From NCBI GenBank assembly GCA_964423445.1, contig CAYREQ010000001.1, positions 1,732 through 65,731 on the forward strand: DNA of 64,000 bases. The letters run 5' to 3'. Shown piece by piece: positions 2,909 to 35,120 of this stretch. Numbering within the stretch: the first letter of the stretch is position 1; every line of letters starts with the position of its first letter. The stretch comes from an uncultured Candidatus Saccharibacteria bacterium (GTDB taxonomy: Bacteria > Patescibacteriota > Minisyncoccia > Phycocordibacterales > UBA9973). A model generated the notes under the pieces. It was given only the letters and a program-made list of their open reading frames with translations. It did no database searches and was not told where the DNA came from. Both the position numbers and the translations under genes were made by a program.

Positions 2909-2913
2909 TTTTA

Positions 2914-11670: not shown

Positions 11671-13071
11671 ATGGATGCATTTTTAGAAGGTGTTGAGGAG
11701 GGAGTAATAGAATACTGGCCTTGGCTTCTTGCTACAGTAGCTCTCTTTTTCCTTTGGTATTACGATATGCTGTATGGTTTAGTAAAAGGCATTCTTCCAC
11801 TGATAGGAACTTTTTTTCTCGGATGGGTAGCATATAAAATGTGGATTCACTACATAAGACAGGATTTCATTTCCGGTATTGATTTTGTTTTACTTGAAAT
11901 TATTCCTCCTCGTGAAGTATTACGTTCACCAAAAGCCATGGAGCTTTTTATCACAAATGCTCTTTATCACTGGAGTTACAAAGGAGGTAAAGAAGAGTAT
12001 TGGCAAGGAGCTGTCTGGTTCTGGTTTTCTTTGGAGATAGCATCCATAGATGGACAAGTACATTTTTATATTCGTACGCCTACCCGTATTAGAGGATTGA
12101 TTGAGACACAAATGTACGCTCAATATCCTCAATCACAAATAAGAGAAGTTCCAGACTATACTTTGGCAGTCGACAAGATAAGTCCTGAGAGTGCATGGAT
12201 GGGCTGGGGTTGTGAATTTGGTTTATTAAAACCAGAGGCTTATCCACTAAAAACTTATGTAGACTTCGGTCTAGATAAAGATCCAAAAGAAGAATATAAA
12301 GTAGATCCTATTTCTCCAATAGTAGAGCTTTTTGGTTCTATAAAAAAAGGTGAACAAATGTGGTTGCAGATTGTCATCACTCCAGTAAAGAAAATGTATC
12401 ATACAAAAGGTACTTGGTTTGGTACGCATGATTGGGTCACGGAATCTAGAAATGAATTATTTAATTTGCTCAAAGATTATACCAGTGTTAAACAACGTCC
12501 AGGTGATCCAGGCAACTCTCGAGTGGAAGTTCGTGTACCTGCATACTTAGACAGAGCCACAAAGGCTATGAGTGCTAAGACTTCAAAAATTGGTTTTGAG
12601 ACAGGCATCAGAGTGATGTATGTAGCTAAAAAAGAAGCTTGGGATATGAGTAGCCGGAGAAACATCCGTCTTATCTTCCGTCAGTATGATGCACCAGACG
12701 TAAATGGATTAGTGCGTATGAATTCCACACAGGCAGATGCATACAGTGGACTCTTTGGACTTTCACAAGAAAAAGTGATGCTATTAGCAGATAGAATGCT
12801 TCATGAATATCGTGAAAGGGGATTCTTTCATCTTCCTATGAGGCATCATTTATTTAACAAGCATGCACTTAGTTGGCCATTTGAAAGTATTATTGCTGGT
12901 TCAGTCTTAATCCAACCTTTCTTTTTGCCATATTTCCACCCACAAACTTTCGTTTTAAATACAGAAGAAATAGCCACTCTTTGGCATTTCCCTGGTCAGA
13001 TATTAAAAGTTCCTACACTCGAACGTATCGAGTCTACAGACGCTTCTCCTCCTACAAATTTACCAACTTAA
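11671..13071 (+). CDS. hypothetical membrane protein (two N-terminal TM helices plus a large soluble domain)
   Basis: 466-aa ORF with good coding character; no recognisable motif. Confidence 0.45.
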   Translation: MDAFLEGVEEGVIEYWPWLLATVALFFLWYYDMLYGLVKGILPLIGTFFLGWVAYKMWIHYIRQDFISGIDFVLLEIIPPREVLRSPKAMELFITNALYHWSYKGGKEEYWQGAVWFWFSLEIASIDGQVHFYIRTPTRIRGLIETQMYAQYPQSQIREVPDYTLAVDKISPESAWMGWGCEFGLLKPEAYPLKTYVDFGLDKDPKEEYKVDPISPIVELFGSIKKGEQMWLQIVITPVKKMYHTKGTWFGTHDWVTESRNELFNLLKDYTSVKQRPGDPGNSRVEVRVPAYLDRATKAMSAKTSKIGFETGIRVMYVAKKEAWDMSSRRNIRLIFRQYDAPDVNGLVRMNSTQADAYSGLFGLSQEKVMLLADRMLHEYRERGFFHLPMRHHLFNKHALSWPFESIIAGSVLIQPFFLPYFHPQTFVLNTEEIATLWHFPGQILKVPTLERIESTDASPPTNLPT

Positions 13072-17452: not shown

Positions 17453-18697
17453 ATGAATATCTTGGGTATTTTTTCTAAAGTAAAAAAGAAAGATGAGCTA
17501 GTATTAGTTTTTGATATTGGTTCTTCGTCTGTAAAAGCAGCACTTTTTTATATACGAGAATCTGGTGTACCAAAGATTATTACTTCTATCCGTGAACCGA
17601 TAATACTCGAAGATAAGGTAGACCCAGATAGATTTTTACTTTTGACAATTCAAGCACTAGAGACTGTAACTAATAAAATTTACACCAAAGGCCTAGGTGC
17701 TCCATCAAGGATTTTCTGTATATTTTCTTCACCGTGGCATATTTCTCAGACTAGAGTTATCAGCTATAAACAAGACACACCTTTTGTATTTACTTCAAAA
17801 TTGTCCGAAGAGTTGATACAAAAAGATATAGCCGTCCTCAAAGAAAATTATTTAAAAAAGTATTCAGATGCTGATCACGCTCTCCGTTTGATTGAATTAA
17901 AAAATATTAAAATAGTTTTAAATGGTTATGAGACTATAAAACCACTCGGTAAAAAAGCCAAAGAAGTCGAGATGACTATCTTTGTATCAATGAGTGAAGA
18001 AAAAGTATGTAAAAAAATAGAAGAAACCATAGCCAAACATTTTACTTCTAGCGCTATTAGTAGTGAAATAAAATTCTCTCCATTTACATTGGCAGCCTTC
18101 ACTATAATTCGTGATTTATTTGTAGATCAAAATAATTTCCTTTTGATAAATATCGGGGGAGAAATCACGGACATTTCAATGATAAAAAATGATATTTTAC
18201 GAGAGTCCACTTCTTTCCCACTCGGCATAAACTTTATGATACGTGAGGTCGCCTCTACTATGAAATGCTCTCTCGCCGAAGCCAAGTCCCTCATTTCTCT
18301 CTTCAAGGATGGGCACGCCGCACCAAATACATTAAATACATTAGAGCCAGCTATAGCCAAGCTAAAGATAGAATGGCTAAAGAAATTCCAAGAATCCCTA
18401 GCAAATTTGTCCAATGATATTTCCATACCAGCCTTTGTGTACACAACTGTAGACAAAGACTTGGCAGAATTTTTTGCTGAAATAATAAAGACTGAGCAAT
18501 TCAACCAATACACTCTCACAGAATCAAAATTCCAAATTGTATTTTTAAATATTGAAAATTTACATGGTATAGCAGAATTTGGGGAAGACTCCATGTTTAA
18601 TGCTTTCCTCACTATTGATGGAGCTTATATAAACCGCTTTTTAGCAAAAGTTCCCGAGCGTAACTTTGAAAAATTCTTACTACAAGATAAAATATAA
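17453..18697 (+). CDS. actin-like ATPase of the FtsA/PilM/MreB superfamily (not the divisome ftsA, which is at 62233)
   Basis: N-terminal VLVFDIGSSSVKAAL phosphate-1-like motif and a later GGEITDISMIKN block. Confidence 0.45.
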   Translation: MNILGIFSKVKKKDELVLVFDIGSSSVKAALFYIRESGVPKIITSIREPIILEDKVDPDRFLLLTIQALETVTNKIYTKGLGAPSRIFCIFSSPWHISQTRVISYKQDTPFVFTSKLSEELIQKDIAVLKENYLKKYSDADHALRLIELKNIKIVLNGYETIKPLGKKAKEVEMTIFVSMSEEKVCKKIEETIAKHFTSSAISSEIKFSPFTLAAFTIIRDLFVDQNNFLLINIGGEITDISMIKNDILRESTSFPLGINFMIREVASTMKCSLAEAKSLISLFKDGHAAPNTLNTLEPAIAKLKIEWLKKFQESLANLSNDISIPAFVYTTVDKDLAEFFAEIIKTEQFNQYTLTESKFQIVFLNIENLHGIAEFGEDSMFNAFLTIDGAYINRFLAKVPERNFEKFLLQDKI

Positions 18698-18699
18698 TT

Positions 18700-20037
18700 A
18701 TGCCTAAAAATTTATTTCAAGACATGGTAAAGGTAAAAAATTCTTCTCCTAAAACTCTCCAAAAAGAGATGGTGAGACCCACTACCGTAAGACAATCTCC
18801 GAGAATGGAAGAAGTAAAAAAATACCCTAGTGTAAAAAAAATTCCTAGGCAAGAATTTTCTCAAAGAGAAATTCCTGAGTACAGAGAATTTAAAGAAAAT
18901 AAAAATACAAAATCTCGCCACGGGCTTTGGTTGGTAGCTTTTATTTCAATAATATTTTTTATCTTTGCTTTGTCTTTTCTTTTTGCTAGGGCTACAGTAA
19001 CAGTAAATCCAAAGGTAAATGATTTTGCCCTAGATAAAAATTGGTCTGCTATAAAAGATATAAATTCAAATGGTCTATCTTTTGATTTAGTCATCATCTC
19101 TGGTGAGGAAGTCAAAAAAGTTTCTGGTGGAGAAGAAAAAGAAGTATCTTTAAATTCCAAAGGTAAAGTTTTTATTTACAATACATTTAGTGCTTTACCT
19201 CAAAAACTTGCAAATAATACAAAGCTCGAAGGTTCAAATGGTAAATTTTACAAGACCAGTAGTGAAGTCACAGTTCCAGGCATGAATATAGATGGCACTG
19301 CTGGGAAAATAGAAGTGGGTATCTTAGGCATGGAAGCAGGGCAAGAGTACAACAGTGAACCCCTTGATTTTACTTTATCTGGGTTTAAGGGAACTCCAAA
19401 ATATTCAAAGTTTTATGGCAGGAGCAACGGAGCAATAACTGGTGGATTTAAGGGGAAAACACTAGTCATAGCTGAAGAAGAGCAACAAAAGGTATTCAAT
19501 GAGCTAAAAGTAGCCTTGAAAGACAAGCTTTTACAAAAAGCTATTGACCAAATTCCAAATGGCTTTATCCTATTTAAAGATGCAGCTTTCTTAAATATAG
19601 ACGAAGAAGGTGTCGAATTTACCTCAGAAGACGGTAATACTCCAGTAAAAGTAAAAGGCACACTTTATGGTTTTTTGTTTAGTGAAAAAGAGTTGACTAC
19701 AAAAATTGCCAAAGACAGTATAGCCAATTATGACGATAGCGAAGTATATATACCAAATATCAAAGACTTAGTTTTTACTATGATTGATAAAGACATATCA
19801 TTTAGTGATGTCCAAAATATAAATTTCAATTTGTCTGGTAATGCCAAGGTCGTCTGGAAGTTTGATGACGCTAGTTTTGCTGGTTCGCTTTTAGGTAAAT
19901 CAAAAAATGATTTCAATCAAATATTATCAGAATATCCTCACGTGGATTCTGCCGAGCTAGAGCTCAGTCCATTTTGGGTCAGATCAATACCAAGTAAATT
20001 AAAAGACATAAAGGTAATAGTAAATTATCCAAAATAA
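18700..20037 (+). CDS. hypothetical bitopic membrane protein (about 85-aa basic cytoplasmic N-terminus, one TM, large extracytoplasmic domain)
   Basis: TM segment HGLWLVAFISIIFFIFALSFLFA; begins 3 nt after the actin-like ORF, so likely co-transcribed. Confidence 0.4.
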   Translation: MPKNLFQDMVKVKNSSPKTLQKEMVRPTTVRQSPRMEEVKKYPSVKKIPRQEFSQREIPEYREFKENKNTKSRHGLWLVAFISIIFFIFALSFLFARATVTVNPKVNDFALDKNWSAIKDINSNGLSFDLVIISGEEVKKVSGGEEKEVSLNSKGKVFIYNTFSALPQKLANNTKLEGSNGKFYKTSSEVTVPGMNIDGTAGKIEVGILGMEAGQEYNSEPLDFTLSGFKGTPKYSKFYGRSNGAITGGFKGKTLVIAEEEQQKVFNELKVALKDKLLQKAIDQIPNGFILFKDAAFLNIDEEGVEFTSEDGNTPVKVKGTLYGFLFSEKELTTKIAKDSIANYDDSEVYIPNIKDLVFTMIDKDISFSDVQNINFNLSGNAKVVWKFDDASFAGSLLGKSKNDFNQILSEYPHVDSAELELSPFWVRSIPSKLKDIKVIVNYPK

Positions 20038-24830: not shown

Positions 24831-25496
24831 ATGACACTAGTTATAGGCTTAAAAGCAAAAGATGGGATAGTGATTGCCTCAGACAGTCGGGCTAGTTCTG
24901 ATATAACTAGTAATGATAAAGTACAAAAAATATTTCAACTAGGAGAACATAGTGCGATTGGTATAGCAGGTGATGGAGGTTTGGCAATGTATTTTTTAGA
25001 CCAAATTAAACCCGGCCTTAATCATGGTACAGGCATTGTAGATTTAGCTGAACAAATAAGGAAAAAAGGTAAAGAATTATTTAATGATTATTTTCAACAT
25101 CTTCAACCAAGCGAGCGTCCTTCTCTGCAGTTATTATTAATTGGCTACACTACTGACGCAAAGGCAGAAATGTATACTCTGCGAAGTACAGATAATTTTG
25201 TGCCGCGAAAAGGTGTGACTGGTTTTGAATCTATAGGTATTCCATATTTTGCTGATTATTTACTGAATCGTCTGTATGAACCTGATATAAAAACTGAGGC
25301 AGGAGTAGAACTTTGTGTTCTATGTATTGAAGAGACAAATTCTCAGCATAGAGGGGTTGGAGAGGCCAACAGAGTGGCTACTTTTTCAAATGTGGCTCCA
25401 TTTGTAGAATTACCCGAATCAAAAATAAAAGAGTTGAGAGAGAAAGCTCAGAAATTCCAAATTGGACAAAAAAGCAAGTTTTACCCAGAAGAATAG
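24831..25496 (+). CDS. Ntn-hydrolase of the proteasome beta-subunit / HslV superfamily (Thr directly after the initiator Met)
   Basis: MTLVIGLKAKDGIVIASDSRAS...KVQKIF places Thr1, Asp17 and Lys32/33 as in 20S beta subunits and HslV; a later SAIGIAGDGG block also fits. Confidence 0.6.
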   Translation: MTLVIGLKAKDGIVIASDSRASSDITSNDKVQKIFQLGEHSAIGIAGDGGLAMYFLDQIKPGLNHGTGIVDLAEQIRKKGKELFNDYFQHLQPSERPSLQLLLIGYTTDAKAEMYTLRSTDNFVPRKGVTGFESIGIPYFADYLLNRLYEPDIKTEAGVELCVLCIEETNSQHRGVGEANRVATFSNVAPFVELPESKIKELREKAQKFQIGQKSKFYPEE

Positions 25497-25618: not shown

Positions 25619-25634
25619 ATGCTAATATTCAAGC

Positions 25635-26225
25635 ATGAATGATGAAGAAATAAAACCTGAACCCGAAGAAGTAGAGGATGACGTCGTCGAATTTGAGTTC
25701 AATGATGACGGTGAAGAGGATTTGAAAAAGACTCTAAAAAAGCTTCGCTTGGATTTAAAAGTAGCAAAAAAAGAAAAAGAAGAATATCTGACAGGTTGGC
25801 AAAAAGAGCGAGCTGATTTTGCTAATTATAAAAAGAGCGAAGATGACAGAAAGGGAAATTATAGCGAGAGCTTAAGAGAGCATATACTTACTCGATTTTT
25901 GACGGTAGCTGATAGCTTTAATATGGCTTTTTCAAATCGTGAAGCTTGGGAAAAAGTAGATCCAAATTGGCGTACAGGTGTGGAGTATATCTACTCTCAA
26001 CTAAACAGTGTTTTTGAGGAATATGGAGTAAAAGAGATAGGAAAAGAGGGAGAAAATTTTGATCCAAATATACATGAATCTATAGAGACAGTGGAGACAG
26101 ATAAAAAAGAAAATAACCACAAGATAGCTAAAGTAATTCAAAAAGGTTACAAGATAGGTGATAGAGTCATGCGCCCAGCTCGGGTAAATGTATTCGAGTT
26201 TAAAGATGGAGAAAACACAAAATAA
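25635..26225 (+). CDS. grpE: nucleotide exchange factor GrpE
   Basis: RERADFANYKKSEDDRK coiled-coil region and the C-terminal KGYKIGDRVMRPARVNV beta-domain. Confidence 0.85.
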   Translation: MNDEEIKPEPEEVEDDVVEFEFNDDGEEDLKKTLKKLRLDLKVAKKEKEEYLTGWQKERADFANYKKSEDDRKGNYSESLREHILTRFLTVADSFNMAFSNREAWEKVDPNWRTGVEYIYSQLNSVFEEYGVKEIGKEGENFDPNIHESIETVETDKKENNHKIAKVIQKGYKIGDRVMRPARVNVFEFKDGENTK

Positions 26226-27909
26226 AATCTGCCAGAGCTGTAAGAAAGATTTCGTTGTAGAGCCGGAAGATTTTTCATTTTATGAAAAGATAAAAGTGCC
26301 ACCCCCGACTCTGTGTCCGGAATGCAGACAGCGTCGTCGCTATGCTTGGAGAAATGAACGTACTTTATATCGCCGACCTTGTGATTTATGCGGAAAGAGT
26401 ACGGTGACTATTTATTCTCCAAATAAACCACATAAAGTTTATTGTAATACTTGCTGGTGGAGTGATGGGTGGGATCCTTCTTCTTATGGCGTAGATTTTG
26501 ATTTCAATCGTCCGTTTTTTGAACAATTTCACGAGCTACAGCTTCGCGTGCCTCGTATGGCTTTGCTAAACAAGAATAGTACAAATTCCGAATATACAAA
26601 TCACTCCGCGAATAATAAAAATGCATATCTGTCTTTTGCTATTTTTGATAGCGAAAATATTTCTTACAGTACTTGGATTATGAAAAATTCTTACGACTGC
26701 ATGGACTGTAGTTTCATAAATGAAAAAGGTGAAAGACTATATGAGTGTATAGACTCCAGAACTTCATATCAATGCCAGTACGGCATGTTTCTCAAAGATT
26801 GTTCTAGTTGTTTTTATTGTTATGATGCCCGTGGCTCCAACGATTGTTTTATGTCTACAAATTTGCGAAACAAGAGTTATGTATTTAGAAATACTCAGCT
26901 TACCCGCGAGCAATATTTAGAAAAAATAAAGGCTATTGATTTTTCTTCATTTAAAATTAGGGCTGAGTTGGAAAAAGAATTTAAAGAATTAATAGAAAAA
27001 CAAGCAGTTCACCGCTATGTTGTTAGCGAGAGAAATGTGAATTCAATTGGATCATTGATATATGATTGTAAGAATATTTTTAATGCTTTTGAGCTCGAGA
27101 GGAGTGAAAATGGAAAAAATATTTATGGTGGACTCGAGCTTAAAGATTGTATGGATATTTATCATGCTGGATTTAACACCACCGAGCTTTGTTATGAATT
27201 ACACGGATGTACTAGGCTTTCAAACTGCCAATTTTGCCACCTTTGCTATGACAATATGAATGTGATGTACAGTGATACTTGCCAGAATAGTCAAAATCTT
27301 TTTGGTTGTGTTTCTATAAAAAAAGGTGAGTACATGATTTTTAATAAAAAATACTCGAAAGAAGATTATGAAGCCTTGAAAGAAAAAATTATAGAACAAA
27401 TGAAGACTACAGGGGAATATGGAGAATTTTTTCCACCAAGTATGGCACCAGTTTATTACAACGAAACACAAGGCAATCTTTATATGCCTTTAACAAAGGA
27501 AGAGGTCTTGGCTCGTGGCTGGAATTGGGAAGAAAATATTCCAGGAACTTTTGGCAAAGAGACAATAAAGAGCGAGGATATTCCAGATAAAATAGGTGAT
27601 GTGCCAGATGATTATTTAAAAGAAATTTTTGCCTGCATTGAGTGTTCAAAGAACTATAATCTTACTCAAAATGAGCTTTTGTTTTATAGAAAAGAAACTA
27701 TTCCATTACCCAGAAAATGTCCAAATTGTAGATATAAGAGAAGGTTTGATATGCGCCCAGCGAGAGCTCTATGGCACAGACAGTGTATGTGTGATAAAAA
27801 ACATACAAACCATGAAGGTAGGTGTGAAGTAGAATTTGAGACATGTTATGCTCCAGAACGATCTGAAAAAGTTTATTGCGAAAAGTGTTATCAGCAAGAA
27901 GTTTACTAG
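26206..27909 (+). CDS. large Cys-rich protein with N- and C-terminal zinc-ribbon modules and internal Cys repeats
   Basis: N-terminal CQSCKKDF...FYEKIKVPPPTLCPECRQRRR mirrors C-terminal CIECSKNY...FYRKETIPLPRKCPNCRYKRR; more than 40 Cys in total. The ATG at 26206 overlaps the grpE stop. Confidence 0.5.
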   Translation: MEKTQNKICQSCKKDFVVEPEDFSFYEKIKVPPPTLCPECRQRRRYAWRNERTLYRRPCDLCGKSTVTIYSPNKPHKVYCNTCWWSDGWDPSSYGVDFDFNRPFFEQFHELQLRVPRMALLNKNSTNSEYTNHSANNKNAYLSFAIFDSENISYSTWIMKNSYDCMDCSFINEKGERLYECIDSRTSYQCQYGMFLKDCSSCFYCYDARGSNDCFMSTNLRNKSYVFRNTQLTREQYLEKIKAIDFSSFKIRAELEKEFKELIEKQAVHRYVVSERNVNSIGSLIYDCKNIFNAFELERSENGKNIYGGLELKDCMDIYHAGFNTTELCYELHGCTRLSNCQFCHLCYDNMNVMYSDTCQNSQNLFGCVSIKKGEYMIFNKKYSKEDYEALKEKIIEQMKTTGEYGEFFPPSMAPVYYNETQGNLYMPLTKEEVLARGWNWEENIPGTFGKETIKSEDIPDKIGDVPDDYLKEIFACIECSKNYNLTQNELLFYRKETIPLPRKCPNCRYKRRFDMRPARALWHRQCMCDKKHTNHEGRCEVEFETCYAPERSEKVYCEKCYQQEVY

Positions 27910-27948
27910 ATCGCAGTATTTACGCCATGGCGTAAATACTGCGGGTTG

Positions 27949-28479
27949 CTATTTGCCGAAAGATTCAAATAAGAATTTTTTTGTTTCTTCGTCTATCATT
28001 TGAGTGACTATTATCATCATCTCTGTAGTGAGACCCAAATCTTTTTTTATATTCATAAATAGGTGTTCGTAAGGGTAGGGGGAAATCCATGCAGAATTTT
28101 TTAGGCACACAAACCCAGCTTTTTTTAGTAAGTAGCGCAAGCTCTCTCGCTCACTTTTTCGACTCTCTGGTAGGTCTAGTAAAATTATTCTCCAAAACCC
28201 ATCCCAAGTTGTATTTACTAGCATTGTTTCACTCTCCAAAGTCAGGCTATGTATCTTCTTTTTGCCCTCTTTTGTGAGTCTTACAAAGCTCTGGTGTGTA
28301 GAGTCGTGAAGCTCTACAAAACCTCCGTTTACGAGGTTTTTGAGGCTTCTAGCCATGGCGTAGGAGGCTTTTGGGTCTTTACTGTCTTTTAATATTTCGA
28401 TAGGTAAAGCTGGCTTTTCTCCTAATATTTTAAGGATTTTTTTGGAATATTGGCCGTCTTTTTGGTTTTTGCTTGACAT
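27949..28479 (-). CDS. winged-helix transcriptional regulator (PaaX-like?), divergent from dnaK
   Basis: N-terminal wHTH ending ...FVRLTKEGKKKI; the C-terminal block WRIILLDLPESRKSERESLRYLLKKAGFVCLKNSAW has a Cas2/PaaX_C-like pattern. The family call is from memory only. Confidence 0.4.
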   Translation of the reverse strand: MSSKNQKDGQYSKKILKILGEKPALPIEILKDSKDPKASYAMARSLKNLVNGGFVELHDSTHQSFVRLTKEGKKKIHSLTLESETMLVNTTWDGFWRIILLDLPESRKSERESLRYLLKKAGFVCLKNSAWISPYPYEHLFMNIKKDLGLTTEMMIIVTQMIDEETKKFLFESFGK

Positions 28480-28509
28480 AGATATATCGTATCATATATA
28501 CTAATTTAT

Positions 28510-28539
28510 ACAAGTATTTTGTGGTCACGAAATACTTGT
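28510..28539. promoter_or_regulatory. inverted repeat ACAAGTATTT-N10-AAATACTTGT in the divergent regulator/dnaK intergenic region
   Basis: 10-bp perfect arms seen in the sequence; not the CIRCE consensus. Confidence 0.45.
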
Positions 28540-28579: not shown

Positions 28580-30490
28580 ATGTCAAAAATAATAGGTATA
28601 GACTTAGGTACAACAAACTCAGCATTTGCAGTAATTGAAGGTGGTGCTCCAAAAATTATAGAAAATATTGAAGGTGCACGTACTACACCTAGTATTGTTT
28701 CCATTGCAAAAAATGGTGACAGACTAGTGGGACTTTTAGCAAAGCGCCAAGCTGTGACAAATCCAGAAAATACTGTCTATGGTATCAAGCGTTTTATGGG
28801 TCACAATTTTGATGATCCAGAAGTTCAGAAAGATTTAAAAAATGCTTCTTTCAAAATTCAAAAATCTTCAAATGGTGGAGTAGAAGTGATGATTGGTGAC
28901 AAGTGGATGCGTCCAGAAGAAATCTCTGCGATGATTTTGGGAAAAATGAAAGCAGACGCTGAAGCAAAGCTCGGAGAAAAAGTCACTGAAGCTGTGATTA
29001 CTGTGCCAGCATACTTCAATGATGCACAGAGAAAAGCTACAAAAGATGCAGGTCAAGTCGCAGGGCTAGATGTAAAGAGAATTATAAACGAGCCGACAGC
29101 AGCAGCTCTCGCATACGGATTTAATAAAAAGAAAAATGAAAAGATAGTAGTGTATGACTTTGGAGGAGGAACTTTTGACGTGTCTGTCCTAGAAATCGGT
29201 GATGATGTCATCGAAGTAAAATCTACAGATGGAGACAGTCACCTCGGAGGTCGTGATATAGATCACAAGATTATCGCTTGGATTGCTGAAGAATATAAAA
29301 AGACTTCAGGCGTAGATGTGCGCAATGACAAGCTCGCACTTCAGCGATTGGATGAAGCAGCAGAAAAAGCAAAGATAGAACTCTCTACTTCCATAGAGAC
29401 AGAAATAAATATTCCATTTATCACTTCTACTGCCGAAGGCCCACAGCACTTACTATTAAAGATGACTCGCGCTCAGCTCGAAGCTTTGGCAGATGAATAT
29501 ATCGCTCGCTCTATTGAAATCACAAAGCGTGCTATGACTGCATCTGGATTCAAGATGGAAGACATGAATGAAATCATAATGGTCGGAGGTCAGACTAGAA
29601 TGCCAAAGATTGTGGAAGAAGTGAAAAAAGTTTTTGGTAAGACTCCAAACCTTTCTATAAACCCTGATGAAGTCGTAGCTCTTGGTGCTGCTGTGCAGGC
29701 TGGAGTACTTCAAGGAGACGTGCGTGATGTTCTACTTCTCGACGTTATTCCACTATCTCTAGGTATTGAGACTCTTGGAGGAGTAGCTACAAAACTAATC
29801 GACAGAAATACTACAATCCCAGCAAATAAATCTCAGACATTTTCTACAGCTGCTGACAATCAAACATCTGTGGAAATACACATTGTCCAAGGTGAAAGAC
29901 CAATGGCAAGTGACAACAAATCTCTCGGCCGATTTATCCTAGACGGAGTGCCACCAGCACCACGAGGTATGCCACAAATCGAAGTATCTTTTGATGTGGA
30001 TGCAAACGGAATATTGAATGTGACTGCAAAAGATAAGGCTAGTGGTAAGACTCAATCTATAAAGATAGAAGCAAGCTCTGGATTGAAAGATGAAGATATA
30101 AAGAAGATGCAACAAGATGCTGAGCTTCATGCTGAAGAAGATAAAAAGAAAAAAGAAGTAGTAGACATGAAGAATACAGCTGAGATGATAATCTATACTG
30201 CAGAAAAAGCTATCAAAGATGCCGGAGATAAAATACCAGCTGAATTAAAGACTGAAGTGGAATCAAAAATTACAGCACTTCGCGGAGTAAAAGACGGCAC
30301 AGATGGTGAAGCTATAAAGAAGGCGACAGAAGAGCTTTCATCTGAGATGTCTAAAATAGGTGAGGCGATGCAAAAAGCTGGAGCTACTCCTGAGACAGGC
30401 ACCACAGCTGAACCACAGCCAGAAGAAGTAAAAGCAAAAGATGCTGAGGTAAGAGATGTTCCACCAGAGGGTGAAGCACCTAAAGCGTAA
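28580..30490 (+). CDS. dnaK: molecular chaperone DnaK (Hsp70)
   Basis: [18 protein letters not shown] and [17 protein letters not shown] motifs; 636 aa. Confidence 0.95.
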
Positions 30491-30494
30491 TTTA

Positions 30495-30530
30495 AAAAAG
30501 CCCCGCGGACTACCGCGGGGCTTTTTGTTT
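30495..30530 (+). terminator. strong intrinsic terminator agccccgcgg-acta-ccgcggggct plus a T-run after dnaK
   Basis: 10-bp GC stem followed by TTTTTGTTTT. Confidence 0.75.
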
Positions 30531-30570
30531 TCTGTATTTTTCTTTGTTTTTATTGTAAAATATATACTAT

Positions 30571-32550
30571 ATGGAAATCCCAGAAGTACCCTTTAATAGA
30601 GAACTTACTTATCTTGGAATCACTACTTACCGAGATAAAAATCAGCTTTTTGGTATCAAGCGCAAAGATAGGCGTCAGCATGTATACCTACTCGGAAAGT
30701 CTGGTACAGGTAAATCTGTCTTGATGTTCAACATGATAATTCAAAACATCCAAAACGGGGATGGAGTTTGCCTTGTAGACCCGCACGGAGAAAACGTAGA
30801 AGCTGTCCTCTCTGCTATTCCTCCACATAGAATCAAAGATGTGATTTATTTCAACCCTGCTGATGCCGAGCACCATATTGGTTTCAATGTGCTCGAGCTA
30901 GTAGACCCACAGTATAAACATCTCGTGGCTTCAGGCCTCATGGGTATTTTCACAAAAATTTGGGCAAACGCATGGAGTGCTCGAATGGAATATATTTTGA
31001 ATAATACTATCTTGGCATTATTAGATACTCCAGGCTCTACAATGCTCGGTATTCCTCGTATGCTCGTAGACAAAGATTATCGTCAAAAAATAATCGCGAA
31101 TTTGAAAGATCCTGTCATCAAAGCTTTTTGGGTGCACGAATATGAAGCATGGCAAGATAAATTCCGAAATGAAGCTATCGCTCCGATTCAAAATAAAGTC
31201 GGACAATTTTTATCTACTTCTATAATCCGAAACGTAGTAGGTCAGCAAAAAAGTACGATAAATATTTTTGACATGATGAACGAAGGAAAGATTTTTCTTG
31301 TAAACGTATCAAAGGGAAGAATCGGTGAAGACAACTCAGCCCTACTTGGAGGTATGATAATTACAAAAATTCAGCTGGCAGCCATGGAGCGTGTGCGTAT
31401 ACCCGAAGATGAGAGAAAGGACTTTTATTTATATGTGGACGAATTCCAAAACTTCGTGACAGATGCTTTTGCTAGTATTTTGTCTGAGGCTAGAAAATAT
31501 CGGTTAAACCTGACAGTGGCACACCAGTACACAGCCCAGCTAGTGTCTGATAAGAGTACGGCTGTGCGCGACGCAGTCTTTGGAAACGTAGGTACTATGA
31601 TAGTGTTTAGAGTCGGCTCTGATGATGCTGAATTCTTGGAAAAAGAATTTGAACCAGAATTTACTCCGAGTGATATTGTAAATCTTCCAAACTACAAAAT
31701 ATATTTAAAATTGATGATAGATGGTATCACATCTCGTCCTTTTTCAGCAAAAACATTGCCACCTATGGTAAAGTCTGGAAATAAAGAAATAGAAGATGCT
31801 GTTATAAATTCTTCTCGTGAGCTTTACTGTAGGTCCAAAGAAGACGTGGAGAGGGAAATAAATGAATGGAGTGGTATGTCTTTAGGTAGTGATACAGATG
31901 GACTAGGTATGGCTACAGGCATAGCAGGGAAATTTCCAGTGATATGCTCTATTTGTAAACAAGAGAGGACTGTTCCTTTCAAACCTGAGCCAGGCAGACC
32001 TGTGTATTGTAAAGATTGTATAGCTAAAATAAAATCTGGCGAGCTGAAACCAATCAAGGGCTCTATAAAACAAATCAACCAAGACCAAGATAAATTTTTC
32101 AAACCTTTGGCCGATCTCGGCATAGAGTTTACTGTAAAAGCCCCAACAGGTACAAAAGAAACTAGGGCAAATGAAGACAGATACCCAGAGAGACAAGACA
32201 ATCACACAGAAAATAAAATAATTCCTAAAAAGAAACCAGCACCTAATCTAGGATTAAAAGAAGCATTGAAAAAAGTTTTTTCTATACCAAAAGCTCCTGC
32301 GCCTACTCCCGCTCCAGTAGTACAAAGACCAGAGCCAGAGCCTGTATCATTGGATGTTTTAAAAAATAAAATAAAAGACATAGTTCCACAAAAAGACAAA
32401 TCTGCAAGTACAGAAGATAAAGATAAATTAAAAAATTTAATAGCCGGAGTCACACCATCAGCTGAAAAACAGGGAACTGAGCCACCACTAACAGCTGGAA
32501 ACATAAAAGAAGTACCCGAAGACGTACTGAGAAAAATTCTAGAGGAATAA
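30571..32550 (+). CDS. P-loop ATPase of the FtsK/HerA/VirB4/VirD4 (type-IV coupling-protein-like) superfamily, with a C-terminal zinc ribbon and Pro-rich tail
   Basis: Walker A LLGKSGTGKS, then CLVDPHGE; Walker B YLYVDEFQNF; TVAHQY..QL; C-terminal CSICK...CKDC; no TM helices. Confidence 0.6.
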   Translation: MEIPEVPFNRELTYLGITTYRDKNQLFGIKRKDRRQHVYLLGKSGTGKSVLMFNMIIQNIQNGDGVCLVDPHGENVEAVLSAIPPHRIKDVIYFNPADAEHHIGFNVLELVDPQYKHLVASGLMGIFTKIWANAWSARMEYILNNTILALLDTPGSTMLGIPRMLVDKDYRQKIIANLKDPVIKAFWVHEYEAWQDKFRNEAIAPIQNKVGQFLSTSIIRNVVGQQKSTINIFDMMNEGKIFLVNVSKGRIGEDNSALLGGMIITKIQLAAMERVRIPEDERKDFYLYVDEFQNFVTDAFASILSEARKYRLNLTVAHQYTAQLVSDKSTAVRDAVFGNVGTMIVFRVGSDDAEFLEKEFEPEFTPSDIVNLPNYKIYLKLMIDGITSRPFSAKTLPPMVKSGNKEIEDAVINSSRELYCRSKEDVEREINEWSGMSLGSDTDGLGMATGIAGKFPVICSICKQERTVPFKPEPGRPVYCKDCIAKIKSGELKPIKGSIKQINQDQDKFFKPLADLGIEFTVKAPTGTKETRANEDRYPERQDNHTENKIIPKKKPAPNLGLKEALKKVFSIPKAPAPTPAPVVQRPEPEPVSLDVLKNKIKDIVPQKDKSASTEDKDKLKNLIAGVTPSAEKQGTEPPLTAGNIKEVPEDVLRKILEE

Positions 32551-32554
32551 AATT

Positions 32555-34012
32555 ATGCCAAAACCAAATCGAGTACAAATAATCAAATATGGTCCACCGC
32601 CACCAGAGCTTCCAGTCTTTGGTAAAGTAAAACCCGAAGAGGTTTCTTTTATTGGGCGTACAAATTATGTGGCTTCTCTCGAGGAGAAAAAATTCGTTTT
32701 TGGTATAAAGCGCATAGATAGGAGAAGACACCTATATATCATAGGAAAGTCTGGAGTAGGAAAGACAAAATTGATGGAGCTTTTTTTACGCCAAGATATT
32801 TCTTATAATCATGGACTTTGCCTGATTGACCCACACGGAGATGTGATAGATGCGATGCTCGATTATATTCCAAGAGAGCGTATAGAAGATGTGTGCATGA
32901 TAGACCCGACAGATGTAGACTTTCCAGCATCTTTCAATCCGCTTGCAAACGTAGATCCGCTTTTTAAATTTCAGCTCACCCAAGGCCTAATCGAGGTATT
33001 TCAAAAGCAATTCGGTGCAAATTGGACACCTAGACTAGAGCACGTATTTCGTTTTACTTGTCTGGCGCTCTTGGATTACCCACATGCGACAATGCGCGGA
33101 ATGATTTCAATGCTGACTGACAGAAATTACAGACAAAAAGTAGTGGAATATATTACTGATGACATGGTAAAGAGATTCTTTGCTATAGAATTCGCTGATT
33201 GGTCTGAAAAATTTGATACAGATGCTATTATCCCACTCGTAAACAAGCTCGGGCAATTCCTCTCTGACCCACTACTCCGAAATATATTTGGACAAAAGCA
33301 AAACAAAATAGATATTTCAAAATTGATGAATGAAGGAAAAATCATTTTGATAAACCTTTCAAAGGGTCGCCTCGGAGAAGAGAATTCTAGTTTCCTAGGC
33401 TCTATGTTTTTGACAAAAATCAAACAAGCCGGAATGGAGCGGGCGAGTATACCCGAAAAAGATCGTGTAGATTTTTATCTTTATGTAGACGAGTTCCAAA
33501 ACGTCGTCACAAATACTTTTGAAAATATCTTATCCGAGGCGCGTAAATATGGACTAAACCTCACCATTGCTCACCAATATGTAGGACAGCTAATTCCAAA
33601 AGTTCAGCAAGCGGTCCTCGGAAATACTGGAGCACTCATATGCTTCCGTGTGGGTGGTGAAGATGCAGTAAAATTAAAACCAGAGTTTGCCCCAATATTC
33701 GATGTGAAAGATATGATAAATTTGGCTGTCGGAGAAATTTATATCAAGATGACAATAGATGGAGAATCTTACGACCCATTTTCTGCTGAGACTTTAAAAA
33801 TTCTTCCACCGACACATCCTTCATATAGAGAAGAAATAATAGCAGCATCTAGAAGAAAATATTCTATATCAAAGGATGATGCAGCAAAATTGATAGCCGA
33901 AGAAGAAGCTACTATCATCCGAAGTGCTGAAGAAAAGAAAATAATTGAAGGAAAAACAAAAGACAATGTGAATAGTTCTCAGTCTTCACAAGAAGCTGAA
34001 CCTATGATATAG
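32555..34012 (+). CDS. paralogous P-loop ATPase of the same FtsK/HerA/VirD4-like family (tandem duplicate, shorter)
   Basis: IIGKSGVGKT, CLIDPHGD, YLYVDEFQNV and TIAHQYVGQL are collinear with the upstream gene (roughly 40-45% identity by eye). Confidence 0.6.
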   Translation: MPKPNRVQIIKYGPPPPELPVFGKVKPEEVSFIGRTNYVASLEEKKFVFGIKRIDRRRHLYIIGKSGVGKTKLMELFLRQDISYNHGLCLIDPHGDVIDAMLDYIPRERIEDVCMIDPTDVDFPASFNPLANVDPLFKFQLTQGLIEVFQKQFGANWTPRLEHVFRFTCLALLDYPHATMRGMISMLTDRNYRQKVVEYITDDMVKRFFAIEFADWSEKFDTDAIIPLVNKLGQFLSDPLLRNIFGQKQNKIDISKLMNEGKIILINLSKGRLGEENSSFLGSMFLTKIKQAGMERASIPEKDRVDFYLYVDEFQNVVTNTFENILSEARKYGLNLTIAHQYVGQLIPKVQQAVLGNTGALICFRVGGEDAVKLKPEFAPIFDVKDMINLAVGEIYIKMTIDGESYDPFSAETLKILPPTHPSYREEIIAASRRKYSISKDDAAKLIAEEEATIIRSAEEKKIIEGKTKDNVNSSQSSQEAEPMI

Positions 34013-34028
34013 TTGTTAAAATAACGTT

Positions 34029-35120
34029 ATGAATAAAGACTATTATGAAATTTTAGGTGTTAATAAGAGTGCCTCCAAAGAAGAAATCAAGAAGGCTTTT
34101 TACAAGTTGGCGCACAAATACCACCCTGATAAAAAAGAGGGAAATGAGGCTAAATTTAAGCAGGTAAACGAAGCTTATCAGGTATTATCTGATGACAGTA
34201 AGCGTTCAAAGTATGACCAATTTGGAGCAGGGTATGAAAATATGGGAGGAAATCCTTATGGAGGTCAGCAAGGTGGCTTTGGCGGTTTTGATTTTTCTGG
34301 TTTCCAAAATGGTTTCGGGGGAGGCGGAGCTGAATTTGATTTTGGAAACTTAAATGATATCTTTAGTGATTTCTTTGGAGGTGGAAGACCACAACAGAGA
34401 CGAGGCCGTGATATATCTACTGAAATACAAATATCATTTGCTGATTCAATTTTTGGTACAAATAGAAAAATTTTAATCACAAAGACATCTAGCTGTCTCA
34501 CATGTAAAGGTTCTGGTGCAAAATCTGGTACAAAGATGGAGACATGCAAGACATGCAATGGTCAAGGAAAAATTCATGAAGCTAAGCGTTCATTTTTAGG
34601 TACTATCTCAAGTACAAAGCTTTGTGATAATTGTCATGGTGCTGGAGAAGTTCCAAAAGAAAAATGTGATACATGTAAAGGCCACGGTGTACTTCGCCGA
34701 GAAGAAGAAGTCTCAATAGCAATTCCAGCTGGTATCAGAAATGGAGAGATGATTCGCATGACAGGTATGGGTGAGGCAGTATCAAAAGGTACCACAGGAG
34801 ACTTGTATATAAAGATAAATGTAATACCACACGCTATATTTGCTCGTGAAGGTCATGACTTGGTAATGAGTTTGAATTTAAAACTTTCCGATGCATTGCT
34901 CGGTATGAAATATCCGATAGAGACATTGGATGGAAAAATAGAAGTGACTATACCAGAAGGTGTATCCATAAATGAAATTCTTCGCGTGCGAGGCAAGGGT
35001 GTACCTATGGGTAAAAACAAGAGAGGAGACTTGCTCATAAAGCTAAACATAAAAATGCCTACAAAAATTTCTCGCAAATCTCGAGAGTTAATAGAAGAAC
35101 TCAAAAAAGACGGCATATAA
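34029..35120 (+). CDS. dnaJ: molecular chaperone DnaJ
   Basis: J-domain with HPD (KYHPDKK); a G/F-rich region; four CxxCxGxG zinc-finger repeats. Confidence 0.9.

Follow-up and report, generated by a model that had tools for sequence, protein, structure and literature searches.

Background

[quoted passage not shown] According to the relevant passages of Quinonero-Coronel et al. 2025 (PMC12102498) there are 5,713 VirD4-type homologues in 2,918 of 3,035 Patescibacteria genomes, i.e., about two per genome. Only 148 of them are near virB4, and VirB4 itself is found in 2,417 genomes; the same passages raise the possibility that the orphan VirD4-type homologues have been exapted. An essential Saccharibacterial T4SS cluster has been described which has no recognisable coupling protein (PMC10633639). 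Two soluble subtypes, a location between dnaK and dnaJ, zinc-ribbon partners and the promoter architecture are not treated in these passages of PMC12102498, and a term search of that paper gave no occurrence of "chaperone". Our literature search found no other paper describing the soluble subtypes, the dnaK-dnaJ location, the zinc-ribbon partners or the promoter architecture.

The stretch of DNA which was analysed, in the following called the window, is 64,000 nucleotides long and comes from an organism which falls in a Nomurabacteria-like clade of Paceibacteria (Patescibacteria/CPR). It carries two ATPase genes, here called A1 and A2, whose products almost certainly belong to the orphan VirD4-type set as that set is presented in the passages of PMC12102498.

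The two ATPases

28580-30490, forward strand: dnaK (Hsp70; ORF and translation)
30571-32550, forward strand: A1, soluble T4CP-like ATPase, 659 aa (Pfam and homologue search)
30694-30717, forward strand: A1 Walker A, GKSGTGKS, residues 42-49 (motif search)
31426-31452, forward strand: A1 Walker B region, YLYVDEFQN, residues 286-294 (Pfam, motif search)
31933-32028, forward strand: A1 zinc ribbon, CxxC-x17-CxxC, residues 455-486 (zf_Tbcl_2, TIGR04272)
32029-32547, forward strand: A1 Lys/Pro/Glu-rich tail with conserved short motifs (composition, alignment)
32555-34012, forward strand: A2, soluble T4CP-like ATPase, 485 aa, paralogue of A1 (Pfam, model, Foldseek)
32744-32767, forward strand: A2 Walker A, GKSGVGKT, residues 64-71 (motif search)
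32957-33280, forward strand: A2 all-helical insert between Walker A and Walker B, residues ~135-242 (DSSP on model, Pfam)
33476-33502, forward strand: A2 Walker B region, YLYVDEFQN, residues 308-316 (motif search)
34029-35120, forward strand: dnaJ, with J domain, G/F region and four CxxCxG zinc motifs (translation)

Both ATPase ORFs are intact, and their lengths and their position between dnaK and dnaJ agree with the preliminary description of this DNA. Over 441 aa the two proteins share 47% identity (E 1e-138). The motifs for which they were first noticed (Walker A, DPHGE/DPHGD, YLYVDEFQN, AHQY) could all be located. In family alignments Walker A is invariant across the A1 and A2 families alike, and D290 and E291 in Walker B of A1 are invariant among the aligned homologues; 3' of this Walker B the sequence SEARKY...AHQY..QL makes up the TraG-D_C region. 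A KD19 scan of both proteins found no segment hydrophobic enough for a TM helix, as had been claimed (maximum 1.38 for A1 and 1.06 for A2 vs 2.49 for the adjoining membrane protein), and judged by sequence both should be cytoplasmic.

The zinc ribbon postulated for the longer protein is there, with scores (zf_Tbcl_2 3.9e-11, TIGR04272 5.2e-12) which both exceed the cut-offs; a ribbon of this type is seen in 11 of 150 distant representatives. The tail following it had been called Pro/Ala-rich, but it is rich in Lys, Pro and Glu (K26, P20 and E16 among 169 residues) and has a single short Pro/Ala stretch. Among 13 selected A1 orthologues the identity is 90% in the core and 51% in the tail, and the tail contains conserved motifs at nearly invariant positions (FKPLxDLGIEF, SLDxLKNK and EVPEDVLRKILE-COOH). 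In the AF2 model of A2, which is of moderate confidence only (pLDDT 67), DSSP places helices at residues 135-156, 159-174, 182-188, 190-197, 203-217 and 222-236 of the insert. The Pfam TrwB_AAD_bind alignment covers this insert, which as modelled is the counterpart of the T4CP all-alpha domain.

Family placement

For both A1 and A2 the Pfam families TrwB_AAD_bind (E 1e-11 for A1), T4SS-DNA_transf, TraG-D_C and DUF87 score above the gathering score, DUF87 only marginally. TrwB is the only solved structure with a significant match to the A1/A2 family profile. It also comes first in the Foldseek ranking for A2 (E 5e-12, TM 0.45-0.54), followed by HerA (2.5e-11 to 1e-8, the DNA translocase 4d2i at E 2.5e-11 being the second-best structural match), Cagbeta and VirB4. 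The Pfam scan of the two proteins gave no match to FtsK_SpoIIIE at E <= 0.1, to the gamma domain or to the HAS-barrel, and none of the curated NCBIfam T4CP models reached its cut-off (47-53 bits vs at least 366). Taken by sequence and structural match, A1 and A2 are P-loop ATPases of the FtsK-HerA superfamily, nearest to the T4CPs (TrwB/VirD4) and ahead of HerA, VirB4 and FtsK. The placement originally proposed, in the FtsK-HerA/T4CP/VirB4 clade, is borne out, and of VirD4/TraG, HerA/DUF87 and FtsK it is TrwB/VirD4 which is closest.

The homologues of A1 number over 8000, and the 120 best clusters (67-100% identity) come from Patescibacteria without exception. Representatives of the A1 type share 55-65% identity with A1, those of the A2 type 44-53% with A2 and 33-40% with A1; by these values the duplication is old. 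Comparison of the sequences thus presents A1 and A2 as ancient paralogues in a Patescibacteria-wide family of "orphan" T4CPs (VirD4/TrwB-like), in both of which the membrane anchor at the N-terminus appears to have been lost. Some related representatives do carry N-terminal extensions and TM helices, and in other lineages two ATPase modules are fused in a single polypeptide (P0273, P0311, P0374).

The chaperone cluster and its signals

25635-26225, forward strand: grpE, which opens the conserved cluster (Pfam GrpE 1.4e-38; upstream in 36 loci)
26188-27909, forward strand: zf573, 573 aa, 35 Cys, with a total of four zinc ribbons at its termini (weak Pfam matches, Cys positions)
27911-27944, forward strand: terminator-like hairpin 3' of zf573 (15 bp stem)
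27949-28479, reverse strand: PaaX-like putative regulator (wHTH and Cas2-like PaaX_M), divergent from dnaK (Pfam PaaX_M 3.5e-21)
28473-28502, forward strand: dnaK promoter-like site, TTGACA-18-TATACT (11 of 12 consensus positions, the best of the region)
28510-28539, forward strand: perfect palindrome ACAAGTATTT-N10-AAATACTTGT, candidate operator between the dnaK promoter and the start codon (sequence search)
30495-30526, forward strand: dnaK intrinsic terminator (14 bp stem, 9 G-C pairs, T-run; -26.6 kcal/mol)
30554-30561, forward strand: A1 promoter -10 box, TG + TAAAAT, leaderless-type, 9 nt from the ATG (locus comparison)
32542-32546, forward strand: GAGGA Shine-Dalgarno of A2, within the 3' end of A1 (sequence)
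34005-34022, forward strand: two overlapping extended -10-like boxes before dnaJ (scan, sequence, locus comparison)

The grpE gene is preceded by a leaderless-type extended -10 (TGcTAATAT) ending 6 nt from its ATG. The position of the PaaX-like gene, whose TIGR02277 match (1.7e-8) is under the cut-off, is conserved in 48 loci. The palindrome occurs once in the window, where 0.02 would be expected by chance, and is present at the equal position in loci L001, L017 and L048; a CIRCE element, or a second copy of the palindrome which could make it a shared operator, was not found anywhere in the window. The strong dnaK terminator reported earlier was recovered, and at least 39 of 60 loci have a comparable hairpin and T-run 3' of dnaK. 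A promoter belonging to the ATPase pair, also claimed earlier, got no support from a generic promoter scan of the window but strong support from the comparison of loci: a TATAAT-like box matching at least 5 of 6 positions lies upstream of A1 in 74 of 76 loci, in 66 of them with its end 6-11 nt away from the ATG, and a Shine-Dalgarno sequence precedes A1 in only one of the 76.

The 4-nt gap between A1 and A2 together with the Shine-Dalgarno sequence suggests that this pair, as the only one in the cluster, is translationally coupled in the window genome. The dnaJ gene does begin 16 nt after the A2 stop, as first described, but it does not simply depend on the ATPase transcript. The first box, TGaTATAGT (34005-34013, hexamer 34008-34013), lies over the last codons and the stop of A2 and is the scan match TTCACA-17-TATAGT with TG; the second, TGtTAAAAT (34014-34022, hexamer 34017-34022), ends 6 nt from the ATG. 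Such a box is found in 43 of 51 loci and is frequently made from the final codons of A2. The region from grpE to dnaJ therefore reads as a conserved neighbourhood and not as one operon, because of the dnaK terminator, the separate leaderless-type promoters of A1 and dnaJ, and the palindrome, present before dnaK only. With an insertion hotspot added to these (see below), "wired into the Hsp70 operon" was an overstatement.

Conservation of gene order and the zinc-ribbon partner

The gene order itself is conserved. Of the 63 species-level loci which could be evaluated, 50 have dnaK upstream of A1, 50 loci have the arrangement A1, zero to four zf573 copies, A2, and the next recognised gene 3' of A2 is dnaJ in 49 of 50. 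The order dnaK-A1-A2-dnaJ in the window genome is thus, on comparison of loci, not accidental, a point on which the preliminary description had made its proposal depend. In 46 of 49 loci dnaJ is the immediate neighbour, and this junction stays tight while the remaining junctions decay; the A2-dnaJ spacer measures 7-214 nt, and among the 46 only one contains a terminator. Between dnaK and A1 there is an insertion hotspot, where as much as 6 kb of unrelated genes can be accommodated. Median identities to the window are 86% for A2 (57 loci with A2), 84% for DnaK (range 72-95%, 59 loci), 75% for DnaJ and 71% for A1. Within the loci sharing the window's arrangement A2 is 83-94% identical, RpoA is 76-88% identical, and A2 exceeds DnaK at 23 of 41 loci; by these identities the conservation of A2 is roughly on a level with that of DnaK and RpoA.

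In a sister lineage A2, zf573-type proteins and A1 are found together but not next to dnaK, and the neighbours are Nramp, CutA1, an LTD/PKD protein and cell-wall genes. No chaperone linkage was seen in the GC-rich distant relatives surveyed. The Hsp70 link is confined to one Paceibacteria subclade and could be synteny passed on by descent, with no meaning for function.

The most constant genomic partner of A1 and A2, kept even where dnaK is missing from the locus, is by these comparisons the zf573 family, with 172 copies over 80 loci (0-4 in the A1-A2 gap, 0-3 from grpE to the regulator gene). The window has a single copy after grpE and none between A1 and A2. Its architecture is [zf_Tbcl - zf_Tbcl_2] at both ends, the Pfam matches being weak, and the predicted model (pLDDT 53) is unusable. 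Orthologues are 70-86% identical and every one is annotated "hypothetical"; the family was overlooked in the earlier reading of the sequence. The ~570-aa zf573 proteins and A1 share the CxxC-x17-CxxC domain (zf_Tbcl_2 type), ribbons 2 and 4 being similar to that of A1. A domain of this type binds Zn experimentally in small proteins of M. mazei (PMC12704099).

Possible functions

The explanation we prefer, held at a little under an even chance, is that A1 and A2 are an exapted cytoplasmic, probably hetero-oligomeric motor derived from T4CPs and working with zinc-ribbon proteins. They would form a soluble, ring-shaped, ATP-driven motor, probably mixed, because T4CPs and HerA work as rings and other lineages fuse two modules. 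The A1 zinc ribbon and its motif-rich tail would be an adaptor arm, and the motor would act on, or alongside, zinc-ribbon proteins, which might be handed over to a distantly encoded T4SS or be remodelled or assembled in the cytoplasm. Since in the Nomurabacteria-like clade the module is enclosed by the genes of the grpE-dnaK-dnaJ cluster, DnaK and DnaJ could plausibly assist the same clients, a cooperation suggested by gene neighbourhood. We infer the A1-A2 interaction, the rings and the contacts to zinc-ribbon proteins or DnaK/DnaJ from neighbourhood, shared domain and family behaviour. The dnaK-A1 insertions, the unshared operator and the empty A1-A2 gap of the window count against this explanation, as do the restriction of the Hsp70 link to one subclade and the low confidence of the A2 and zf573 models.

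That A1 and A2 are ordinary T4CPs of a T4SS encoded elsewhere, feeding DNA or effectors to a VirB4-type channel and perhaps docking via another membrane protein, we regard as unlikely, at something like one chance in four; their place between dnaK and dnaJ would then have no functional meaning. The VirD4/TrwB assignment agrees with it, as does the lack of chaperone linkage in sister and distant lineages, and the relatives with TM helices could provide the anchor. The passages of PMC12102498 also report that T4CP genes often lie at a distance from virB4 and that a VirB4 system is present in most Patescibacteria. Against it, according to the same passages, the genomes with homologues outnumber those with VirB4, and a t4cp homologue is not essential for epibiotic growth of Ca. 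S. epibionticum whereas the T4SS is. Mutants of TrwB, MobB and PcfC without the TMD, which A1 and A2 also lack, are non-functional in transfer (PMC7431656). DnaK/RpoA-level conservation is unusual among T4CPs, the curated cut-offs are all missed, and the A2-dnaJ junction has stayed tight. The pilus or T4SS components proposed as companions did not turn up either: no pilus or channel gene was recognised among 36 scanned proteins of the 64-kb window.

A HerA/FtsK-like translocase moving DNA (or RNA) in the cytoplasm, serving DNA uptake or processing, repair or chromosome handling, is improbable in our judgement, at about one chance in five. TrwB is a DNA-dependent ATPase, PF10412, the top Pfam match, is described as a T4CP DNA-binding domain, and HerA ranks second by structure with DUF87 above its gathering score. 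The A1 ribbon, the Lys-rich tail and the Arg-rich zf573 ribbons with their CPxCRxxRR motifs would be the nucleic-acid-binding parts, and the authors of the M. mazei work point to the cysteine motif in TFIIB-family transcription factors too (PMC12704099). The Pfam scan, however, gave no HAS-barrel, FtsK_SpoIIIE or gamma domain, no NurA, Sir2 or nuclease partner adjoins the pair, and the genes around it serve as chaperones, in metal-related roles or in the cell wall, not in DNA metabolism. The idea that a module of anti-phage defence or of a mobile element, with a HerA-type or MADS-type ATPase, was inserted by chance is close to refuted: weak PADLOC matches to mad8 (7.5e-16, 2.7e-11) and HerA defence models, and the hotspot next to A1, are set against the location and identity of A2 over dozens of species, which is core-gene behaviour, the lack of any effector partner, a GC content in the module (0.38-0.40) similar to that of adjoining windows (0.33-0.39), and homologues near-universal in Patescibacteria by the account in PMC12102498. 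An ATPase pair conserved between dnaK and dnaJ across an ultra-small Patescibacteria clade, always with zinc-finger-rich proteins, suggests a core cellular machine.

Comparison with known systems

With TrwB, VirD4, TraG and TraD the pair shares the nucleotide-binding domain with Walker A and B, the all-alpha-like helical insert and the ARKY...AHQY..QL region. It differs in having no N-terminal TMD, in consisting of two co-encoded paralogues, in the ribbon and long motif-bearing tail of A1, in housekeeping-level conservation, and in that its 64-kb window has no recognised virB4, relaxase or channel genes. The orphan VirD4-type set, as characterised in the passages of PMC12102498, is alike in copy number, near-universality and distance from virB4. 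HerA-type hexameric translocases, including defence HerA, share the core fold and DUF87, but A1 and A2 have neither HAS-barrel nor a NurA, Sir2 or DUF4297 partner and match T4CP models better.

In the canonical hrcA-grpE-dnaK-dnaJ heat-shock operon with CIRCE the genes have the same order on one strand as grpE, dnaK and dnaJ of the window. The window cluster is, unlike that operon, broken by zf573, the divergent PaaX-like gene, A1 and A2; it has another palindrome instead of CIRCE, a terminator for dnaK, and separate leaderless-type promoters for A1, grpE and dnaJ. The Dot/Icm system is an analogy of function only: DotL is membrane-anchored in a defined secretion system, and its adaptors IcmS, IcmW and LvgA are small and dedicated, not Hsp70. 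The likeness, as far as the consulted parts of PMC7251119 and PMC3441705 describe it, is that a coupling ATPase and chaperone-like adaptors together select and deliver clients.

Gene organization of the locus

The two ATPase genes lie in an Hsp70 gene cluster on a stretch of low-GC chromosome (GC 0.33-0.42) which is occupied by housekeeping genes, including those for ClpB, BipA, AlaRS, RpoA, DnaB, FtsZ and FtsA. We call the 659-aa ATPase A1 and its 485-aa paralogue A2; zf573 is a family of Cys-rich proteins of ~570 aa with multiple zinc ribbons.

Features of the grpE-dnaJ region (window positions)
25635-26225, + strand: grpE
26188-27909, + strand: zf573 gene, 573 aa, Cys-rich product
27949-28479, - strand: PaaX-like gene, 176 aa, divergent from dnaK
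28580-30490, + strand: dnaK
30554-30561, + strand: promoter box of A1, TG+TAAAAT
30571-32550, + strand: A1, 659 aa
32555-34012, + strand: A2, 485 aa
34008-34013, + strand: hexamer of first dnaJ box, TGaTATAGT
34017-34022, + strand: hexamer of second dnaJ box, TGtTAAAAT
34029-35120, + strand: dnaJ

A1 and A2 are 47% identical across 441 residues. Their genes are separated by 4 nt, with GAGGA, and A2 is separated from dnaJ by 16 nt. Read from its first ATG, the zf573 frame shares 38 nt with the end of grpE (26188-26225); translation may really begin at the second Met (26206), since the orthologue consensus starts about 6 residues later.

A gene at 4652-7375, 21 kb upstream, encodes a canonical two-ring ClpB (Clp_N, AAA, AAA_lid_9, AAA_2, ClpB_D2-small). 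With it the Hsp70-Hsp100 disaggregase pair is complete without the coupling-protein-like ATPases, and A1/A2 as a simple ClpB replacement, i.e., as the disaggregase partner of Hsp70, is ruled out. Just 5' of grpE (24831-25496) there is a gene for a 221-aa proteasome-subunit-like protein (PF00227, 6e-17) with weak matches to archaeal and bacterial 20S subunits; it was rejected as part of a "proteostasis island", as none of the 80 related loci has it at this place. Large ORFs of 405, 466, 414 and 445 aa elsewhere in the window (2841-4058, 11671-13071, 17453-20037) have sub-threshold Pfam matches or none, one of these being a weak FtsA/PilM-like match at 17453-18697.

Family placement of A1 and A2

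Every ATPase motif quoted in the preliminary description was found in A1/A2, and GKSGxGK[ST] (Walker A) and YLYVDEF (Walker B) are invariant across both paralogue families. [quoted passage not shown] Both proteins match TrwB_AAD_bind, T4SS-DNA_transf (TraG/VirD4), TraG-D_C (PF12696; 27.1 and 23.8 bits, GA 22) and, marginally, DUF87/HerA (27.8 and 27.2, GA 23.2) above the Pfam GA. There was no Pfam match to FtsK_SpoIIIE (PF01580) at E <= 0.1 and none to the HAS-barrel in either. The best NCBIfam matches were conjugative TraD and VirD4-like models, whose cut-offs are 250-650; none of the curated T4CP cut-offs was reached (best SXT_TraD, 47-53 bits vs 366; the VirD4-like CD1115, 39-44 bits vs 250), and the VirB4 models came below the T4CP ones (TIGR00929, 18 bits vs 643; CD1110, 15-26 bits vs 325).

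In the AlphaFold model of A2 (pLDDT 67, pTM 0.64, core blocks 80-90) the core is RecA-like, and an insert of six helices (residues 135-236, local pLDDT 55-78) separates the two Walker motifs, in a region covered by the TrwB_AAD_bind alignment. A Foldseek search with this model returned TrwB at the top (E 5e-12, TM 0.45-0.54, ~400 columns), followed by HerA, Cagbeta/VirD4, defence HerAs and VirB4 (4ag5 at rank 50), and in a family-profile search of solved structures TrwB was the sole significant relative. No segment with KD19 >= 1.6, our measure of a TM helix, occurs in A1 or A2; some of their relatives carry N-terminal TM helices. The combination of the NBD, an insert of the all-alpha type and the TraG motif, without an anchor, therefore places A1/A2 among the coupling-protein-like ATPases of the FtsK-HerA superfamily. 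We regard this family call as near certain, and equally that part of the model proposed below which describes them as soluble exapted T4CPs.

A1 carries a zinc ribbon, CxxC-x17-CxxC (zf_Tbcl_2 4e-11, TIGR04272 5e-12), a domain shown to bind zinc in small proteins of Methanosarcina (PMC12704099). Beyond the ribbon, the tail of A1 is rich in Lys, Pro and Glu and has several short motifs that hardly vary, among them EVPEDVLRKILE at the C-terminus. A2 ends in a conserved E-x-P-[ILMF]-[IL]-COOH peptide (33994-34012) common to A2-type and N-extended relatives, with the variants EPMI, EAPFI, EVPLL, EEPLI and EPII (among them the family representatives P0241-P0245). This end is present whether or not dnaJ comes next, and it may be a docking motif.

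Gene order in relatives

At least 593 genomes with a relative were found in a scan of one genome per species, and the best 80 loci (L001-L080; 58-85% identity to A1) were compared gene by gene with tblastn. The order dnaK-ATPase-ATPase-dnaJ, for which the preliminary description had proposed a check in related genomes, turned out to be kept: dnaK is 5' of A1 in 50 of the 63 loci having enough flank, and where A1 is followed by A2 (50 loci) the next recognised gene is dnaJ in all except one, directly in 46 and via 1-2 zf573 copies in 3. In full, the conserved order reads grpE-[zf573 x0-3]-PaaX-like(-)-dnaK-A1-[zf573 x0-4]-A2-dnaJ. The zf573 genes form tandem arrays of variable copy number, with 0, 1, 2, 3 and 4 copies between A1 and A2 in 14, 13, 15, 6 and 2 loci, respectively; the window variant has one copy after grpE and zero between the ATPase genes. 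The A2-dnaJ spacer is 7-214 nt across the loci and exactly 7 nt in 11.

A1 and A2 are among the best-conserved proteins of the locus. The median identity to the window is 86% for A2, 84% for DnaK, 75% for DnaJ, 73% for GrpE and 71% for A1, and RpoA is 76-88% identical in the related loci, which puts the conservation of A2 roughly on a level with that of DnaK and RpoA. Among 13 selected A1 orthologues the core is about 90% identical and the tail about 51%. Both ATPases are under very strong purifying selection. In contrast to the A2-dnaJ spacer, the junction between dnaK and A1 is an insertion hotspot, where unrelated, variable genes take up as much as 6 kb. Two families of small ORFs are seen repeatedly in this cargo (L003, L013, L037, L067 and others): proteins of ~110-127 aa with the N-terminus MSTQKETxEFI...RAMFGEYALY, and proteins of ~88-106 aa with the motif IDPxKVxxNQLPKKF.

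A1 and A2 are obligately co-located with each other and with the zf573 family. The zf573 protein contains 35 Cys, with two zinc ribbons at each end, in the arrangement [zf_Tbcl - zf_Tbcl_2] - Cys-rich centre - [zf_Tbcl - zf_Tbcl_2]; the single zf_Tbcl_2 of A1 is thus a ribbon type common to zf573. Identity is ~40% between paralogues and 70-86% between positional orthologues, all of them annotated as "hypothetical". A sequence search of the PDB with zf573 gave nothing meaningful, and an AF2 model from 36 orthologues (pLDDT 53, pTM 0.31) was too poor to use.

The linkage to the Hsp70 genes has its limits. In thirteen loci, mostly more divergent (A1 58-64% identical), dnaK is absent up to a distance of 10 kb. 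In eight of them, looked at in detail, the recurring arrangement is Nramp(-) | A2 - CutA1 - cytidylyltransferase - zf573 xN - A1 - LTD/PKD-domain protein - methyltransferase, with MurA-like, MurB and Alr genes further 3'. The Lamin-tail/PKD-domain protein is directly 3' of A1 in 7 of the 8 (among L068-L080, e.g., L074 621-14056), and metal-related genes here adjoin those of the zinc-rich proteins. As a negative control for chaperone linkage we used a single-protein metagenome scan, which gave 18 loci only, 27-51% identical to the query in the best segment; GC-rich relatives among them (46-48% identity to A1) are single genes with no dnaK, dnaJ or zf573 nearby. From the dnaK-less arrangement and the GC-rich relatives it follows that the stable core is A1 + A2 + zf573 and that the Hsp70 genes are a clade-specific neighbourhood.

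Promoters and regulation

A strong intrinsic terminator lies 3' of dnaK (30495-30526), and at least 39 of 60 loci have a hairpin with a T-run at this place; such a structure is present in only one of 46 A2-dnaJ spacers. A TATAAT-like box with at least 5 of 6 matches, frequently TGnTAnAAT, precedes the A1 ATG in 74 of 76 loci, which bears out the earlier proposal that the ATPase pair has its own promoter. The box ends 6-11 nt from the start codon in 66 loci, and a Shine-Dalgarno sequence before A1 was seen in 1 of 76. As an internal contrast, dnaK has a TATAAT-like box in only 30 of 53 loci and at scattered distances. As far as sequence can tell, the geometry of the A1 box points to a promoter dedicated to A1, with an mRNA that has no leader or almost none. 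The same design is found at grpE, and at A2 in all loci where zf573 genes lie between it and A1. At dnaJ a box occurs in 43 of 51 loci, often supplied by the 3'-terminal codons of A2 (cct atg ata taa t; ...EPMI-stop), so the co-transcription of dnaJ with the ATPases that had been suggested is possible by read-through and is not required. The extended -10 regions of the cluster are at 30554-30570 (A1), 25619-25634 (grpE) and 34005-34028 (dnaJ); since the extended -10 ends 6-11 nt before the ATG and a Shine-Dalgarno sequence is absent, the mRNAs of the cluster would be leaderless.

The best sigma-70-like site of the region is 5' of dnaK (28473-28502). Between this promoter and the start codon there is a perfect palindrome (10-N10-10), ACAAGTATTT-N10-AAATACTTGT, at 28510-28539, which is unique within the window and whose exact core is found at the same place in 3 other loci. 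It was not found before A1, grpE or clpB, no CIRCE element was present in the window within 3 mismatches, and searches for direct and inverted repeats from 25.4 to 35.2 kb gave chance-level matches only. A shared heat-shock regulon was rejected on these three results, and nothing points to an operator common to the cluster.

The divergent gene next to the palindrome (27949-28539) encodes a PaaX-like protein, a wHTH with a Cas2-like PaaX_M domain, and is kept at this position in 48 loci. In Gram-positive bacteria HrcA/CIRCE would occupy this place 5' of dnaK. The PaaX-like protein is likely to be the Hsp70 regulator of the clade and the palindrome its candidate operator.

Distribution of the ATPase family

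Homologues of A1/A2 number in the thousands, and the best 120 clusters are all from Patescibacteria/Paceibacteria ("Nomurabacteria"), with identities of 67-100% for A1 and 84-95% for A2. An exhaustive search of 1.84 billion cluster representatives gave 21,543 relatives, 5,526 of them under 1e-30. The best 150 representatives comprise soluble A1-type proteins with long C-tails (the zinc ribbon is kept in 11), short A2-type proteins, and forms with N-terminal extensions of 230-410 aa which match no Pfam family and some of which begin with TM helices; no fusion to zf573 beyond the single ribbon was found among them. In three proteins of ~1200 aa from other, apparently GC-rich lineages (P0273, P0311, P0374), a single polypeptide carries two T4CP-like ATPase modules in tandem. 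A2-type representatives are nearer A2 than A1 and A1-type ones nearer A1, so the duplication is old. This is consistent with the published survey of orphan T4CPs (Quinonero-Coronel et al., PMC12102498). It reports 5,713 VirD4-type homologues, spread over 2,918 of 3,035 genomes of Patescibacteria (about 96%); only 148 lie close to virB4, VirB4 itself being present in 2,417 genomes. According to the same survey the t4cp homologue is not essential in Ca. Southlakia epibionticum, and exaptation is raised as a possibility. The essential T4SS (type IV secretion system) cluster of this organism is without a recognisable coupling protein (PMC10633639). Of the T4SS and pilus components that the preliminary description proposed to look for, none was recognised here: neither virB4, channel genes, pilus genes nor a relaxase among the 36 proteins scanned in the 64-kb window, and no T4SS genes or relaxase in the +/-10 kb flanks of related loci.

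A possible function and its alternatives

A1 and A2 are two T4CP-type ATPases with intact catalytic motifs and are cytoplasmic by sequence. By analogy to the TrwB and HerA hexamers, and with support from the two-module fusions, they would probably form a mixed ring-shaped motor, in which the ribbon and tail of A1 could act as an adaptor and the zf573 proteins could be clients or cofactors. DnaK/DnaJ may assist the motor in the clade with interleaved genes. We hold this composite model tentatively, at slightly under even chances as a whole; our confidence is moderate for the pairing of A1 with A2 and low to moderate for the functional coupling to Hsp70.

A different explanation is that A1/A2 are an ordinary T4CP serving a distant T4SS, the synteny with dnaK/dnaJ being accidental. 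If they did serve the essential T4SS, the missing coupling component of that system would be identified. However, the transmembrane domain (TMD) is missing in A1/A2, the homologues are more widespread than VirB4, and the conservation is at the housekeeping level. We consider this explanation unlikely, and a HerA/FtsK-like nucleic-acid translocase, with HerA next to TrwB in the structural search and PF01580 and the HAS-barrel unmatched, slightly more so. The weak PADLOC matches of A1/A2 to HerA reflect similarity at the superfamily level only and no NurA/Sir2/DUF4297-type partner gene was found in any related locus; a defence module was rejected on these grounds and is highly improbable.

There is a real chance that the A1/A2 system is a new cytoplasmic machine. 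In its boldest form, which we consider unlikely, the composite model makes A1/A2 + zf573 an unrecognised Patescibacteria-specific machine, a coupling-protein ring that has been uncoupled from secretion and exapted to serve as a core ATP-driven motor for remodelling or delivery, which cooperates with Hsp70 in Nomurabacteria-like lineages. It would then be an addition of this lineage to proteostasis (or nucleoprotein handling) instead of a component of the T4SS. A large part of bacterial diversity belongs to the Patescibacteria, and most of their conserved lineage-specific proteins are without an assigned role; a motor working with Hsp70 or on zf573 would be a clear exaptation of a secretion ATPase to cytoplasmic housekeeping and would give a function to a large "dark" family.

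That orphan T4CP homologues exist in Patescibacteria is already published (PMC12102498), and up to now nothing more is known of the family than that its members are homologous to T4CPs, lie far from virB4 and may have been exapted. What is added here is the existence of two ancient co-encoded soluble subtypes, an obligate genomic partner family sharing a zinc-binding domain with one of them, and a fixed position inside the Hsp70 cluster across a large clade. The division into two ancient soluble T4CP-like subtypes is not described in the literature we searched, nor are the fixed place of the ATPases in the Hsp70 cluster of a large Paceibacteria clade, the zinc-ribbon partner family or the promoter architecture.

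Comparison with known systems

The canonical HrcA/CIRCE dnaK operon has CIRCE upstream and co-transcribes grpE-dnaK-dnaJ, whereas here CIRCE is absent and the promoter-like boxes are separate. FtsK/SpoIIIE proteins combine the PF01580 motor with N-terminal TM segments and a gamma (KOPS-binding) domain, and A1/A2 fall outside this family. VirB4 proteins have a VirB4 N-terminal domain and a C-terminal ATPase which reach the model cut-offs, unlike A1/A2. HerA/DUF87 translocases carry an N-terminal HAS-barrel besides the central HerA ATPase domain and are paired with a nuclease or effector (NurA, Sir2, DUF4297); neither the barrel nor such a partner was found for A1/A2. The closest likeness is to the T4CPs (VirD4/TrwB/TraG/TraD). 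Most of these have an N-terminal transmembrane domain, required for function in TrwB, MobB and PcfC, which A1/A2 lack, but the Walker NBD and the TraG/TraD C-terminal motif region are shared, and the all-alpha domain in the NBD is matched by the six-helix insert of the A2 model.
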